Sequence record: ON528738
Strand: one strand, 5' to 3'
DNA: 64,000 bases
Source of the DNA: Shigella phage ESh28
The notes below the pieces were generated by a model. That model did not search any database. It worked only from the letters and a program-made list of their open reading frames with translations, and was not told the DNA's origin. Positions 2,372 to 35,720 of this stretch are shown here, piece after piece. Position numbers and translations under genes: made by a program. Numbering within the stretch: position 1 is the first letter of the stretch; the number at the start of each line of letters is the position of its first letter.

Positions 2372-5512
<3,141 letters not shown>

Positions 5513-10305: not shown

Positions 10306-10961
10306 GCTATTCTCTCAAAATAATAAAATACCGTAGGTTGTGTGTGACTATCTAGCGTGACAGTTTGCGCACCTAATAATTGCCAAGTTCCGTATCCAGG
10401 TTTAGAAGGAGAAATTATTTCTTGTTTGAAAGTAATTCCTTTATCAGAGTATTGTTCTAAGATATGTTCTTGGTTATCTAAATACTTAACTTGTATTTTA
10501 TTTCCTATGGTAGGATGGTCTTCAAATGAATCAATTGCAATAAATTTTGCAACCATTTCCTGTAGAGCTGTTCTAACGGCACTGGTAAATTCGATTGAAG
10601 TCATTCCATTAGTAGCTTTAACTGGAATACCAAACATGTTAACAATAACTGGATCACCTGGTTTGGCTGAAGTATCAGTAACGGTTCCTTCAAATGACCA
10701 ATAGTCTGTTTGTTGCACGCCAGTAGGAGATACGCCGCTTATATTAACTAATACAGCTCCAACCTGTTGCTCTGCCATATTTCTAACATCATTGATAGCA
10801 GATTCTACATTCGGGTCATAAAAGCCTTTTGCTATTTGTGAAATTGTTACAGCGCCTACTGGCTGATTATTCATAACCGAAATATCATTTTTCTTAGTTC
10901 TAAAACCAAGAAAATCTGCTAAGCGGGAAATAACTCCCGCTTTATTATTAAGTAAACTCAT
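10302..10961 (-). CDS. 11: baseplate wedge protein gp11
   Basis: Start set at internal Met ([20 protein letters not shown]...) giving 219 aa as in T4 gp11; the ORF-track start MDKDCIM is 6 codons upstream. Confidence 0.88.
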
Positions 10962-13695: not shown

Positions 13696-14700
13696 TTAAA
13701 ATGTAAACAGAATATTGATTTCTTCTGTTTGATCCATTGCCATGATAATAGGTGGCCTATTTTCCATATAAATCATTTCGCCCGAATGCCTCATTAAATC
13801 TTCCGGATCATAATAATCCTTTTCAGCTTTAACGTTTGGGTCATTTGGATGAACTTTAGCTTCAAGAGGATTGGTGATTATTGATATTTGTCTAAATCCT
13901 TTATTTCCCGGTAATGCAGCATCAGGAAAATAAACTGAATCTAAATATGCTTTAAAACGGATAGTATTTGCCTTAACACGGTAAATTAATCCAAAATCAT
14001 CTTGTTGCCAAGTGAGATTATCTTCATACCCCCATCTAGTTGGGTCTTCTTTTAATTCCTCAGGCCAAGGAACTACGATATATTCATTTGTGCATCTATT
14101 TATAGATACATCAGGCGGAATCTCAAAAAGATATTCCCAAACATATCCGTCTCCAGGTTCGATTGTTCCTTCCGCGTCTCCTCGACCTTCAGGAGGAGTC
14201 ATTGACCTAACAGAAGGAGTCCATTTTCCACCTAACTTAATACATTCATCCTTGTCAGTCAAAGATGTTATTGAGCATGTTCCTGTGTCAGGAACATCTA
14301 AACAACGATATACTAGCCATCCTGCGCCTGATTCAGTAGCATTGTAAGGAGCTGAGTTACATACTACAATATCGTTAATTCTAAATGTGTATGGATCCGG
14401 ATATCTAGTATCTCCCCAATCTCTACGAGGAATAACCGCATCAAGCATTGATGGAAGAACTTTTACTGTTCCCATCATATGCGTCCACATGTCAGTTACG
14501 CCTAATACAGAATCGGTTGGATAAGGTGGAGCAAAGCCCACCTCATTTTCATTTGATGACCACGGTTCTGATCTTCCAAATGTGATAAAGATAGTGTTTT
14601 TATCCGGACCACTCCCAATTGAATTATAAAAATTCAACATTTTTTCTGTTCTAAATTTTGAAGTAACTATCGCACGATAGATAACACTTGAATCATTCAT
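13696..14700 (-). CDS. 8: baseplate wedge protein gp8
   Basis: 334 aa; T4 size and order. Confidence 0.9.
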   Translation of the reverse strand: MNDSSVIYRAIVTSKFRTEKMLNFYNSIGSGPDKNTIFITFGRSEPWSSNENEVGFAPPYPTDSVLGVTDMWTHMMGTVKVLPSMLDAVIPRRDWGDTRYPDPYTFRINDIVVCNSAPYNATESGAGWLVYRCLDVPDTGTCSITSLTDKDECIKLGGKWTPSVRSMTPPEGRGDAEGTIEPGDGYVWEYLFEIPPDVSINRCTNEYIVVPWPEELKEDPTRWGYEDNLTWQQDDFGLIYRVKANTIRFKAYLDSVYFPDAALPGNKGFRQISIITNPLEAKVHPNDPNVKAEKDYYDPEDLMRHSGEMIYMENRPPIIMAMDQTEEINILFTF

Positions 14701-17700
14701 CTATTTTAACCTGTGTTGGATTTTCAGGGTCTCTTGGATTTCCTATATTATCTTTTAGACGTTTATTAACTAAATCCCTAAACTGTGCAAATGTTGTTCC
14801 AGATGCGTCAAATAGAGGACTCATTAACTTGCGTCGTTCAGAAGGCAATTGACCTTGAAATATTGAATTACTATTTTCAGCATTATAGTCATCAGGAAGA
14901 GGATATTTTACACCAGCCATTGGGCCAGGTTCATAAATTGCTTCTCCTGTTACTGAATCATGTTCAATTTCGCCAGTTGGAGTTAATTTAGCTACTCTAT
15001 CAGCATATTCAGTAGGCAATCCAGAATCCCATTTGTAGTTTTTGTATTTATTAATTATAGTCTCTGTGTGTTTAAGAGTTAAACCAACATTAATAAACAT
15101 CGTTAAAAGGGTAATTGCTATAAATCCAAATCCTACTGGATGAACAAAACGAATAACGTCAGATTTCCAGCGAGAAGAAGGTAAATTGGATTTAATTTTC
15201 ATTACATAATATGATCGGCTTCTATTAATATAGTCTATATTATTTTGAAGCAAATCCTTTCCTTTAACACCACGAATAATTTCGCCTTCAAAACTCGGAA
15301 GTCTTTCTGCTTTAACTTCTTGACCAGCAATTAATCTTCCCAAAAGATTATGAATAGTTACGGTCCATTGCAATTTACCATTAGAATAACTTCTTTCTAT
15401 ATAAGTAACATTACATCTTCCTGTAGATGTATAAATCGTTTGTCCTACCAAATCTTCAGTTAAAGAATCAGATTGAACGATTATATCGTATTCAGTACCA
15501 GCACCAGATTCAATTTCAATTTCAACTTCTTCATTATAAAGAACTTTAAAAAGAAATTTGTATGATGCTTCAATTCCTTTAGTAGAATAAAAATCATAGC
15601 TACGTGATTCAAAAAATCTTGCAACAGCATCACGTTTGTCAGCATTTAAATAAATGTTTCTTTTATATATCTCTGACCACAAATATTCCCATGCATGCTC
15701 TTCTCGTGGATATTTGTTACGAATTAAATTTCGTAAATTGTTATACTGAGTTCCATATCCATCAGAAAGATATTGAATATATGCTTCGCAAAATGCCTCA
15801 AAATTCGAATCTTGTAGTAAATAAGAATCAGGCATCATTGTGCCAATCAATGGTCTTAAATCAGGGTCAGCTAATCCGTGCTCTTCTTCTGGTGCCCAAG
15901 GAGTTTCATGCTCTTGGTTTTGTAAAAATGCTTTTAAAAATATTCCAGTTGGCTTCCAAATTATTTCAACCGTGTCTCTCACTCGATAGTTAAAATCATA
16001 ATAAGAAATTATTTCACCAGAGGATTTATAAAAAAGCATCCCAGACGCATATTTTTTAAATCCCGTGAATTTAACGTTTGGCATTACTATAGTGCAATCG
16101 CCGTCATCCCAGTATTCATGAACTAATCTATCTGGCGATGTTTCTGGAAAATTTTCAATAACTTTAGTATATTTTAAATCTGCATAAACTACCACAGCCC
16201 TATTAGAGTTGTTTATCCAGCACCGTGTATTAGACTTTTTAGACCAGTTAAAGAATGGTTCTGCATAGTATTTCATTGGCTGAGGCGTAAAAGTTTCCCA
16301 ATCAGACTTTTCATCTGCTATAAATGCCATCATATGATAATGCTTATCAGCTAACCATTCACGAGGAAATTCATATTTAACGGCACCGATTAACTGATAT
16401 TTTGCTACAGTTTCAGGGTCATTAACAACGTTATCATTTAAAAATTTAAAATTACTCGAAGATAGAGAAACTAATTTACCATCAGTTGACATATTCGCAT
16501 ACCCAGGTTGAATACGTCTTCTTTCTTCTTCAGTGTTGCCAAAAACTCTTTTCCACGTTTTTGTGTCATGATTTAAAACATATATTCCTTTATCAGTAGA
16601 ATCAATTATTTTTGACGTTCTAGGATTAGCATTTAATGTTTCAACTTCACCGATAATAAGAGCAAAAACTTTATCACCAATAGAATCCATTTTATAGCAT
16701 ACTGCTTTAGGATTTCCAGTTATAGTCATTGTATCAGGTTCAAATAGCCTTTCCGAATATGTTGGAGATAATGGATCAGAATCTATAGGTGCATTACTCG
16801 TTTTTATGTATCTAACTTTGTCTCTGGCGACAACGTAAATGTAATCATCGGTGCAAGTAATAGCTTCAGCTATACGATACACGTTTGCAGGTAATGTAGC
16901 ATAAGTACCAAAGATTTCAACATCAAATCCCAAATGAAGTTGATCACCAAGTTTAGCGAATGTTATGTCCTGCGAACTAAATCTGACATCATCAGCTGAC
17001 CATCTAACATCAGTAGATTTGCGGCCATAGAAAATCTTGTCGTATCCTAGAACATATGTTGTGCTCGCAGATTGGTAATATACAGTCTTAGATAAAGGAT
17101 ATCCTACACGGTCATTGAAGAGCTTTACAGCTTTCCAGGTTTGACCTTTATCATTGGATACTTTAACTACAGGTTGATAACGCTCAAAAAGATATAGAAT
17201 CCCTTCTGATTCCATCAAATAAACTCGATTAATATCCTTACATACTTGCTGAATAGAACCTTGTATTTCATGATACTCATTTTCACCAATAATAAAATTA
17301 CTTATTGATGAAACATCAGCATATGATGGGCTGAATTGGAATGATTCATTCATCAATGCAGCCATTATAGTGTCATTATTAAAATTGACATAATTAGAAT
17401 TGTTAAGAGTAAATTTTTCCTGAATGAATTTATTAGCTAATTGCATTTCAATCATGTTTTGAAATGTATAAGCATTTGTAGCAAAAGTTTCAAACTCTTC
17501 GGTATAAATCCAATCAGACTGCTCAAAATCTTGTGCAGCTGTAGCTACTCTAATGATGTATGATGTTAGTGGATCAGCATCATCAAAAAAGAAACTATTG
17601 TTTGCTGTATATCCTAAATTAATCCAACGATATTGATCACTCGGGAGATTTTCCCCCGAGTCTGTTTTTGTCTCAGCGATTTCTACAAAATAGTAGAAAT

Positions 17701-26408: not shown

Positions 26409-26666
26409 ATGAAAACTTTCAAAGAGTTTGCTACAAAAACTACTATTACTGAATCTTCCCACGGTATGGAAGTAAAGCTTGGAATGGCTTTAGCTGAAGC
26501 TGAGCGTCTTTTCTCTCGTATTAAAGAACTTGCTGCTGCAGTCGATCCTTCGTCTTTTAAAGGAGACCAAACTAAAGTTAAAGCGCTTTTAGCATTATGC
26601 TCCGATGCGGGAGAAATCGCTAAAAATGGTTCTAAGATGAAGAAACGATTAGAAGATTTAAAATAA
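26409..26666 (+). CDS. internal protein with capsid-targeting N-terminus (ipI position)
   Basis: 85 aa; N-terminus MKTFKEFATKTTITE resembles the T4 internal-protein capsid-targeting sequence with an I-x-E prohead-protease site. Confidence 0.6.
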   Translation: MKTFKEFATKTTITESSHGMEVKLGMALAEAERLFSRIKELAAAVDPSSFKGDQTKVKALLALCSDAGEIAKNGSKMKKRLEDLK

Positions 26667-29489: not shown

Positions 29490-30053
29490 ATGAAAACCTA
29501 TGCCGAATTTTTAACCGAAGCAGCAAAATTACCATCTGAAGCAGATCTTACTAAAGTATTCTTCCAATTGGACCCAAAAGACCGTGGCGATTTTCTTAAG
29601 TGGAAAGCTAAAGCTATTGAAATGTATAACATCGATAATAGTTCTTTTACGATGAGTCAAGAAAATAAATTCAATAAAGCATTTTTCAAAATTTCTAAGA
29701 AACTGGCATCAGGCGCTCAGGTTCCTAAATCTGCCTTAGCTACTCCTGAACGCGCACCCGTCAAAATTTCTAAGAATATGTTTGACACTAAAAAATATGT
29801 TAATGCTTTGAATAAAGCTCTTGATGCATTGGATGATGCAAAGAAGGCAGCCCGCGATCTTCAAGACGTGTACACCGATTTTGATCGTAAAACTAAAGGT
29901 TCTATTTCAAATAGTGAACGCAATAGTGTAAGTGTTTATTCAGATAGCCTTGATGTTCTTGGCGATGCGTATACTGAAATTAAAAATCGTATTAACACTG
30001 CATCTAAGCTAAAAGCTGCTGCCGAAGCTATAATAACTAAACTGGGTAAATAA
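29490..30053 (+). CDS. internal protein III-like (capsid-targeted)
   Basis: 187 aa; N-terminus MKTYAEFLTEAAK matches the internal-protein capsid-targeting consensus (MKTYQEFIAE-like); Lys/Ala-rich. Confidence 0.6.
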   Translation: MKTYAEFLTEAAKLPSEADLTKVFFQLDPKDRGDFLKWKAKAIEMYNIDNSSFTMSQENKFNKAFFKISKKLASGAQVPKSALATPERAPVKISKNMFDTKKYVNALNKALDALDDAKKAARDLQDVYTDFDRKTKGSISNSERNSVSVYSDSLDVLGDAYTEIKNRINTASKLKAAAEAIITKLGK

Positions 30054-33538: not shown

Positions 33539-34069
<531 letters not shown>

Positions 34070-34106
34070 AGTTGTTTACTTTCTCCTAGAATTGTGATAG
34101 TATATT
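34070..34106 (+). promoter_or_regulatory. T4 early promoter module upstream of denV
   Basis: -35 GTTTAC with a -10-like gtgaTAGTAT about 18 bp downstream. Confidence 0.5.
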
Positions 34107-34128
34107 CACAGTTACTTGGAGGGATAAA

Positions 34129-34545
34129 ATGACTCGTATTAATTTGACTTTAGTATCTGAACTTGCTGATCAACATTTAATCGCAGAATACCGTGAATTG
34201 CCGCGTGTTTTTGGTATAGTTCGTAAACATGTTGCAAATGGTAAGCGGGTTAAAGATTTTAAAATATCTTCCGAGTTTATTTTAGGTTCTGGTCATGTTA
34301 CTTTCTTTTACGATAAGTTAGAATTTTTGCGAAAGCGTCAATCAGACATTATAACGGAATGCTTAAAACGTGGGTTTAGTATAAAAGATACTGAAGTTCC
34401 TGACATCAGCGATATTCCAGTAGAATGGAAAAATGATTATAATCCATGCAAATCAGCTATTAAATTGAGTCAACAACGACTTGATGAAAAAATTTTAATG
34501 AAACCACATTGGTATAAGTATTACGGTAAAAATATTTACATTTAA
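34129..34545 (+). CDS. denV: endonuclease V (pyrimidine-dimer DNA glycosylase)
   Basis: 138 aa, [29 protein letters not shown]..., matches T4 endonuclease V as remembered. Confidence 0.95.
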
Positions 34546-34554
34546 AGGAAACCC

Positions 34555-35028
34555 ATGAAAACATATCAAGAATTTATTACTGAAGCAGCTATTAATTCTC
34601 AAATTATTGCTGAATCTTTTACTGATCTTTTGAAATTTAAAAAAGGTCAAAAAATCACTGCTGTATTGGATGATGGTACAGAAGTTGAGATGGATGTACA
34701 GGGATATAATTATGCAGTAGATGGAAAACTGTATAATAAATCTCATGCTAAATTTGATTCATTTGACGATTTTGTTAATACAGTTGAAGATGAAAAAACT
34801 CGTAGATCCATTGCAACTGGCGACGCTAAGGTTCTTATGGCACACGGTCATGAACGTATCCGCGTCAAACAGAATAAAATGGGCGAAGATAATTTCGCAT
34901 TAGTTGGTTATCAATCTGGTAAACAAACTTATGGCTATCAACGTACTGCTACCATGTATAACAAAAATGGTAAAATTGCCTTTGTAAATAGTAAAGGTTC
35001 TATTCAGTACGTTAAATCGTTCAAATAA
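34555..35028 (+). CDS. internal-protein-like protein with capsid-targeting N-terminus
   Basis: 157 aa; N-terminus MKTYQEFITEAA matches the capsid-targeting consensus; located between denV and the regB-side small genes, not at the T4 ipII/ipIII position. Confidence 0.55.
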   Translation: MKTYQEFITEAAINSQIIAESFTDLLKFKKGQKITAVLDDGTEVEMDVQGYNYAVDGKLYNKSHAKFDSFDDFVNTVEDEKTRRSIATGDAKVLMAHGHERIRVKQNKMGEDNFALVGYQSGKQTYGYQRTATMYNKNGKIAFVNSKGSIQYVKSFK

Positions 35029-35180
35029 GCAAATAAGAAATATGGGAACAAACTGGACCTCATGATTCTGTGAGGGATTCCCGCCAACCTGTAATAAGGT
35101 CGAGCCCAAGTGCGGTAATGGGTAAATACAGAAATGGACAATTCATGCGCCACGGAATGGCCCAAATTTAGAGAGAAGAA

Positions 35181-35720
35181 ATGAGAACATTTTTAACTGG
35201 TCCTTATCTATCCCTGATGAATGCTTTTACACACCATTCTGATGCTAGAGTAGAAGAAATTTGTAAAAACGATTATATCCCACCATTTGAAGACTTACTT
35301 AAGCAGTATTGCACACTTCGACTAGATGGTGGACGTCAATCCGGTAAATCAACTGCAGTAACTAATTTTGCCGCTAATTGGTTGTATGACGGTGGAACAG
35401 TTATTGTTCTTTCTAATACTTCAGCTTACGCTAAAATTTCCGCAGATAATATTAAAAAGGAATTTTCGCGTTATTCTAATGATGATATTCGATTCCGCTT
35501 ATTTACTGATTCTGTGCGCAGTTTTATTGGTAATAAAGGAAGCAAGTTCAGAGGTTTATCGCTTTCGCGAATTTTATATATAATTGATGAGCCTGTCAAA
35601 TCTCCTGATATGGATAAGATTTATAGTGTCCATATTGACACTGTACACTGCTGCTGTAATATTAAATGTTGCATTGGTGGTATTACTCGTCCACAGTTTT
35701 TCGTAATCGGAATGCAATGA
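35181..35720 (+). CDS. P-loop NTPase-like hypothetical protein
   Basis: 179 aa; Walker A-like GGRQSGKST and Walker B-like hydrophobic run ending IIDE. Confidence 0.6.
   Translation: MRTFLTGPYLSLMNAFTHHSDARVEEICKNDYIPPFEDLLKQYCTLRLDGGRQSGKSTAVTNFAANWLYDGGTVIVLSNTSAYAKISADNIKKEFSRYSNDDIRFRLFTDSVRSFIGNKGSKFRGLSLSRILYIIDEPVKSPDMDKIYSVHIDTVHCCCNIKCCIGGITRPQFFVIGMQ

Follow-up and report, generated by a model that had tools for sequence, protein, structure and literature searches.

Ip4, a T4-type internal protein encoded directly after denV in Shigella phage ESh28, and a structured-RNA candidate downstream of its gene

Identity and relatives of the protein encoded after denV

We analyzed a 64,000-nucleotide stretch of DNA from Shigella phage ESh28 (record ON528738), hereafter the window, which belongs to a Tequatrovirus other than T4 and is about 96–97.5% identical to T4_ev151, Sf21 and similar phages. 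The 157-residue open reading frame (ORF) that directly follows denV is almost certainly Ip4, a T4-type internal protein, and the interpretation as a whole—a protein that would be packaged in the head, cleaved and injected, with an anti-defense role assigned by analogy—is one that we hold with high confidence. Ip4 itself is already known: it has a name, it is represented in Pfam and PHROGs, and many genome annotations list it as internal virion protein. The gene and its immediate surroundings comprise the following features.

34129–34545, plus strand: denV (endonuclease V), the upstream neighbor of Ip4, with 77.5% amino acid identity to T4 denV
34546–34554, plus strand: 9-nt spacer between the denV stop and the Ip4 start, containing the ribosome-binding site AAGGAAACC, as read from the sequence
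34555–35028, plus strand: Ip4 coding sequence, ATG start, 157 codons plus stop, member of Pfam DUF7412 and PHROG 3155
34555–34584, plus strand: capsid-targeting sequence MKTYQEFITE, Ip4 codons 1–10, with the prohead-protease motif I-T-E at residues 8–10
34606–34614, plus strand: second protease-like motif, I-A-E, Ip4 codons 18–20; (I/L/M)-x-E is kept in 14 of 14 close relatives

The ORF matches Pfam DUF7412 over residues 1–157 of 158 profile positions (E = 2.7e-95; 317 bits, where the curated cut-off is 27) and PHROG 3155, "internal virion protein" (E = 2.9e-101, 337 bits). When its predicted structure was compared with a viral structure library, the best match was UniProt Q38388, "Ip4 [Enterobacteria phage K3]". 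The K3 protein is 98% identical over the full length (TM 0.90 to the BFVD model), carries the same leader and falls into the same family (DUF7412, PHROG 3155), with no difference of substance between the two. The gene is also named Ip4 in phage ime09 and described as "coliphage T4 Ip4 homolog" in the CGG4-1 record. The ip gene series takes its names from Repoila et al (1994; EMBO J 13:4181), whom we cite through PMC12373910, where that work is given for "at least 10" Ips; Q38388, an old accession, fits its ip4–ip10 series. A preliminary description of the window had already picked out the 157-residue ORF directly after denV, which is present as described, and had taken it, correctly, for an ip-type, capsid-targeted gene.

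A tblastn search recovered Ip4 from 470 phage records; it is at least 95% identical in 306 of them, among which are T2, RB3, RB18, RB33 and ime09, and 60–80% identical in about 160 from Klebsiella, Salmonella and other T4-like phages. When residues 21–157 were searched with phmmer against 1.84 billion representative proteins, only five family members were matched. The distant relatives P0015–P0017, 37–42% identical, have leader-like N-termini that end in LNE|S (MNFEQFLNES, MNFKDFLNES and an internal ...SLNES), and since such starts occur even at this distance, the Ip4 body is always accompanied by a leader. With a dN/dS of 0.02–0.14, Ip4 is a real gene under strong purifying selection. The PDB sequence search with Ip4 returned nothing meaningful and the NCBIfam search only sub-threshold noise, and a literature search with the terms "Ip4" and "DUF7412" found no papers. 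The AF2 model (pLDDT 77.6, pTM 0.72) consists of β-strands and three helices, with residues 11–20 predicted to be disordered. No sequence or fold likeness was detected between the mature domain and Ip1, Ip2 or Ip3, and what Ip4 shares with T4 IPII, T4 IPIII and a 187-residue ORF at 29490 in the window is the leader only.

Leader and probable packaging and processing

A review of Black's work assigns targeting to leader residues 4 and 7, and cleavage to residues 8 and 10 (PMC9026906). Ip4 has the targeting residues Y4 and F7 characteristic of T4-type internal proteins and, at the level of the motif, the gp21 protease site I/L-x-E at residues 8–10 as I8-T9-E10. An alignment of 14 family members shows no variation at M1, K2, F7 and E10; position 4 holds either Y or F, and position 8 one of I, L and M. 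When the leader was written as a degenerate DNA pattern, it matched once in the 64-kb window and not at all in 100 shuffles. The ribosome-binding site ahead of the gene reads AAGGAAA. The preliminary description had called the leader perfect; a capsid-targeting leader is indeed present, but it is near-perfect, agreeing with the T4 capsid-targeting sequence MKTYQEFIAE at nine of ten residues (A9T). Similarly, the body had been described as Lys/Gly/Tyr-rich, of which the lysine part stands: residues 11–157 contain 11.6% lysine, a clear enrichment, whereas glycine (8.2%) and tyrosine (5.4%) are only mildly enriched. The two other ip-like genes mentioned there do exist (26409–26666 and 29490–30053), and their bodies are, as stated, unlike that of Ip4.

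Virion proteomics, which the preliminary description had proposed as a check, has already been published for an orthologue and supports both packaging and loss of the leader. CsCl-purified virions of the Klebsiella phages ValerieMcCarty03/04 gave 66/66 spectra for the "internal virion protein" gp127/119 (PMC13119998, Table 3). The gene for the ValerieMcCarty03 protein gp127 (VMC263_127) adjoins that for lysozyme, and its product shares 70% identity with the window protein, so that these mass spectrometry data concern the Klebsiella phage orthologue and not the ESh28 protein itself. Within the portion of the ValerieMcCarty04 spectrum table that was analyzed (PMC13119998), none of the 66 rows for the orthologue is the leader tryptic peptide TYQEFLNESR, which, as negative evidence only, fits a cut at Glu10. 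Three rows of the same table are LATVGVMTESVGSNLLK, residues 13–29, which spans the second motif; the occurrence of this peptide in virions argues against complete cutting at residues 18–20, and the second motif is probably uncut or only partly cut. A mature start at S21, considered on account of the invariant (I/L/M)-x-E at residues 18–20, was dropped because the orthologue's virion peptides span that site. Packaging of Ip4 in the head has a very high probability and its leader is quite probably cut at E10. Mature Ip4 would then most likely comprise residues 11–157, a basic protein with a predicted mass of 16.5 kDa and a pI of 9.1.

Following the biology of T4 IPIII, the Ip4 precursor would be made late in infection, and its leader would dock it to the prohead's scaffolding core. 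Cleavage after Glu10 by the gp21 protease would leave a basic protein of ~16.5 kDa (pI about 9.1) that would stay in the head and be injected together with the DNA, as has been shown for the T4 IPs (PMC9026906). Once in the host, and here by analogy only, injected Ip4 might neutralize a defense that acts on incoming T-even DNA.

The only late-promoter motifs upstream of Ip4 on its strand lie ahead of e.

33541–33548 and 33554–33561, plus strand: two T4-type late-promoter motifs, TATAAATA, upstream of e

The motif TATAAATA does not occur directly upstream of Ip4 (33562–34555), nor is there a terminator-like site on the plus strand between 33000 and 36000. We infer from this arrangement that late expression of Ip4 would occur by read-through of e and denV. 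An adjacent late promoter has been described as typical for ip genes; the nearest one here is ~1 kb off, before e, which counts against our interpretation of Ip4.

Gene order at the denV locus

In the window, the local order is nudE, e, denV, Ip4, a 152-nt gap, vs.8, vs.7 to vs.3 and regB, whereas T4 has e, ipIII, ipII, denV and vs.8, with no gene and only 26 annotated nucleotides between denV and vs.8. The denV–regB interval thus holds seven genes in the window (Ip4, vs.8, vs.7, vs.6, vs.5, vs.4 and vs.3) against six in T4. The preliminary description had counted one gene more than in T4 and found no T4 counterpart at this position; both statements are correct, the extra gene being Ip4. An e–denV–Ip4–vs.8 block was covered to at least 80% in 415 of 834 matching records, compared with 30 of 765 for the T4-type block e–ipIII–ipII–denV; the 12 listed among these 30 are T4 and phages nearly identical to it, for example RB55 and RB59. 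Phage ime09 likewise has Ip4 in this slot. Other genera keep Ip4 in the same surroundings, with a further ip gene after it: the order is e, Ip4, second ip, vs.8 in the Jiaodavirus phages PKO111 and ValerieMcCarty03, and denV, Ip4, second ip, vs.8 in the Gelderlandvirus CGG4-1. The metagenomic relative P0016, only 37% identical to Ip4, directly follows a gene of the Pyr_excise (denV) family. In T2, Ip4 comes directly after e, without denV; the T2 record PV648364 (L002, 3913–4001) has no denV between the two genes. T2 is classically UV-sensitive, which a T2 record without denV fits.

Sequence divergence at the locus points to an exchange on the T4 side. The window denV is 77.5% identical to T4 denV at the amino acid level (dS about 1.5) and no closer to the allele of Salmonella phage CGG4-1 (75.4%), whereas e is 96% identical to its T4 counterpart (dS 0.23), nudE is also 96% identical, and the downstream sequence is nearly identical. 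The drop from 96% in the flanking e to 77.5% in denV indicates that T4 carries a swapped module, ipIII–ipII–denV with the T4 allele, in place of denV–Ip4. Taken together, the majority order, the same slot in other genera and the 37%-identical relative after denV mark T4 as the derived genome, atypical at this locus, and the denV–Ip4 order as the common one, which is probably also ancestral. Ip4 sits between denV and vs.8, while in T4 the e–denV interval holds ipII and ipIII, just across denV; the Ip4 slot is therefore the known polymorphic ipII/ipIII locus and not a new one.

These data bear on two alternative accounts of the gene. The preliminary description had seen in it an ip-type cassette inserted at a new locus, which amounts to a recent acquisition at a site normally without ip genes. 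T4, which has no gene at the position of Ip4, agrees with such an event, but the synteny comparison of the denV region that the same description had suggested showed the window order to be that of the majority (415 against 30 records) and T4 to be the odd one out. Moreover, Ip4 had already been named, the same slot is occupied in three genera, denV–Ip4 linkage persists in the 37%-identical relative, Ip4 has diverged at synonymous sites in step with its neighbors, and T4 ipII and ipIII flank the very same denV gene. Recent insertion is refuted by the synteny data, and we consider it extremely improbable. The constancy of the neighborhood could instead reflect a partnership in which Ip4 and DenV work jointly, Ip4 being injected, for instance, to shield incoming DNA or make it ready for repair. 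Such a partnership would explain why the adjacency is kept from Tequatrovirus to a distant metagenomic relative, and the 9-nt spacing after denV is tight. However, T2 and the Jiaodavirus phages carry Ip4 without an adjacent denV, T4 has denV without Ip4, and the Foldseek matches of Ip4 to AAG glycosylase were not significant (E = 0.1, TM 0.16), so that we judge it very improbable.

Possible functions of Ip4

Ip4 and the T4-type Ips (Ip1–3, IPII and IPIII) are alike in having an N-terminal leader with a protease motif, conserved at 9–10 of 10 residues, in their packaging logic, in their location at a hotspot by denV and e, and in their dispensability, whereas their mature domains are unrelated. 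Ip4 is also far more widespread and conserved than T4 ipII and ipIII, with 470 records against 30 for the T4-type module. The leading candidate role for Ip4, by analogy only, is that of an injected anti-defense protein, which we rate about as likely as not: Ip1, Ip2, Ip3 and Bas37_0260 are each an inhibitor of a type IV restriction enzyme. Ip1, Ip2 and Ip3 each block one distinct GmrSD variant (PMC12373910), while Bas37_0260 blocks McrBC (bioRxiv 10.1101/2025.11.20.689424) and shows that Ips can target type IV enzymes beyond GmrSD. Bas37_0260 resembles Ip4 in carrying a leader and in having a mature part unrelated to Ip1–3; it is injected by its phage, a T4 relative, and differs in being encoded at the ipI locus. 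In contrast to Ip1–3, ip4–10 did not reproducibly inhibit any GmrSD variant tested (Silas 2025, PMC12373910, Supplementary Fig. 9), where "ip4" is matched to the present protein by name only. T2, whose deposited genome encodes Ip4, is restricted by the GmrSD of ECOR17 and of ECOR21 (PMC12373910). The null result for ip4–10 and the restriction of T2 together suggest that Ip4 does not block those GmrSD variants.

Between genera, Ip4 retains 70.7% identity, compared with 65–67% for lysozyme, 55% for nudE and 39–47% for vs.8. Ip4 is unusually conserved for an arms-race gene, which counts against an anti-defense explanation; such conservation fits either a conserved target or a structural role. A structural or housekeeping function of the packaged protein, whether in core or head assembly, in the neutralization of DNA charge or organization of the DNA, or in ejection, would agree with conservation across genera above that of neighboring genes, and with an old origin, given that relatives at 37–42% identity retain the leader. 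It would also suit the basic character of Ip4 (pI 9.1–9.3), the abundance of the orthologue in virions, the negative GmrSD tests of ip4–10, and the lower head assembly rate and burst size that follow loss of T4 IPIII (PMC9026906). Set against this, T4 and its close relatives grow well without Ip4, which makes it dispensable for the shared head machinery and for head assembly as such; all four Ips of known function are restriction inhibitors; and the Ip4 model has no recognizable DNA-binding fold. On balance, we think it rather unlikely that the main role of Ip4 is structural.

Returning to anti-defense, Ip4 could, as a tentative proposal, be older and better conserved than any other injected internal protein and might disarm a widespread defense outside the GmrSD variants tested. 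If this were true, finding the target of Ip4 would expose a so far unrecognized barrier to the entry of T-even DNA. Being unusually conserved for an internal protein, Ip4 is in any case a reasonable candidate for anti-defense screens. The Dar proteins of phage P1 (DarA, DarB and Hdf) offer a likeness of strategy: they are packaged in the head, injected, and shield incoming DNA from restriction, the restriction in their case being of type I. To our knowledge, they have no sequence relationship to Ip4 and no T4-type leader.

A conserved structured-RNA candidate downstream of Ip4

The identification of Ip4 by itself alters little, and an element found in the gap downstream of the gene, where it forms the downstream border of the variable ip cassette, may matter more. 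This element looks like an undescribed structured RNA common to several unrelated lytic enterobacterial phage groups. It begins after the Ip4 stop and ends 17 nt before the ATG of vs.8.

35044–35163, plus strand: conserved GC-rich structured-RNA candidate of 120 nt, with its core at 35088–35120
35044–35048 with 35078–35082, plus strand: helix P1 of the element, covarying
35058–35062 with 35071–35075, plus strand: helix P2 of the element
35088–35090 with 35097–35099, plus strand: hairpin P3 of the element, CCU-GUAAUA-AGG
35181–35720, plus strand: vs.8 homologue of 179 residues with a Walker-A GKST, PHROG 1488, the downstream neighbor of Ip4

The element is near-identical in T4, T2, ime09 and the window, and it is conserved in Jiaodavirus and Gelderlandvirus with indels of 2, 8 and 12 nt, which rule out coding. 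A blastn search found it in 1,116 phage records, which span T4-like phages, Vequintavirus and sipho-type phages of 45–46 kb from E. coli and Klebsiella. The core, CCTGTAANAAGGNCNAGCCNAAGNGNGG, was likewise seen in Vequintavirus, a coliphage of 45 kb and Klebsiella siphophages of 46 kb, where it often lies close to tRNA clusters. The core was absent from 185,579 bacterial and archaeal genomes, the families of Rfam 15 gave no match to the element even at E 10, and the core string appeared in none of the paper texts searched. A likeness to T4 rnaC/rnaD was considered and not seen.

Helix P1 covaries and encloses a variable loop. Its strands occur as GGGAA/UUCCC, GGGAG/CUCCC, AAAGG/CCUUU and AAAGC/GCUUU, and further covarying pairs are GGGG/CCCC, GAAUG/CAUUC, GAGUG/CACUC and GAGGG/CCCUC. 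The P1 strands of one sequence paired better with each other than with strands swapped between sequences in 50,000 of 50,000 permutations. Using MAFFT, we observed changes on both sides of all five P1 pairs, with 100% of cells paired; in a model-based alignment of 34 distinct copies, an alignment that leans towards structure, four of four pairs changed on both sides and 94% of cells were paired. P3 is invariant save for one compensatory closing pair, and the loop AAGUGCGGUAAUG is conserved. P4 and a proposed pseudoknot are weaker than P1, the pseudoknot having a modest p of 0.007 and being weak in the window's own type. A single-sequence fold of the element was not more stable than shuffles (z = 0.67), and RNAalifold on the MAFFT alignments recovered P3 only.

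The model found one copy of the element in the window and two in Jiaodavirus phages, one after each ip gene. The Jiaodavirus copies lie at 3495–3602 and 4034–4125 of L004 and, on the minus strand, at 14671–14778 and 14148–14239 of L037. In the KPV15-like L022, the element (10331–10438, minus strand) has an ip gene (MKTYKEFITE...) just downstream. Its position beside ip genes in Jiaodavirus and in L022 indicates that the element marks the borders of ip cassettes in T4-like phages. Its possible roles are those of a stable small RNA, of an element at the 3' or 5' end of an mRNA, and of an anchor for recombination when cassettes are exchanged. Two tandem copies were seen in L021, at 5196–5302 and 5084–5167 (minus strand).

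The vs.8 start and other leader-bearing genes

In T4 (NC_000866, 64793–64912), the element is annotated as codons 1–40 of vs.8, a protein given there as 219 residues long. The same frame in the window (35070–35171, plus strand) is a 33-codon ORF with a GTG start, whose TAG stop falls 9 nt before the ATG of vs.8. This stop and the frame-breaking indels in other genera make the T4 vs.8 start doubtful, and codons 1–40 of the T4 gene were probably annotated in error. The Walker-A sequence of the window vs.8 homologue is GGRQSGKST, and the protein has weak matches to AAA_14 and to the N-terminal domain of the terminase large subunit. Where some phage records call vs.8 a "large terminase subunit" or an "IpIII internal head protein", the label looks mistaken.

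The two other leader-bearing ORFs of the window are the following.

29490–30053, plus strand: ORF of 187 residues with a good capsid-targeting leader, MKTYAEFLTEAA... (MKTYAEFLTE...), PHROG 2280, "unknown function"
26409–26666, plus strand: leader-bearing ORF of 85 residues with the diverged leader MKTFKEFATKTTITES (MKTFKEFATK...), PHROG 3499, "internal head protein"

The 187-residue ORF was found in 164 records; among the 25 of those listed, every annotated one calls it only a hypothetical or unnamed phage protein, and the others carry no annotation. It is likely an unrecognized internal protein at a third ip locus. It lies just after the tRNA cluster and the rnaD/rnaC region, where T4 has e.8 and e.7. 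The 85-residue ORF is located at the ipI locus, after 57B.
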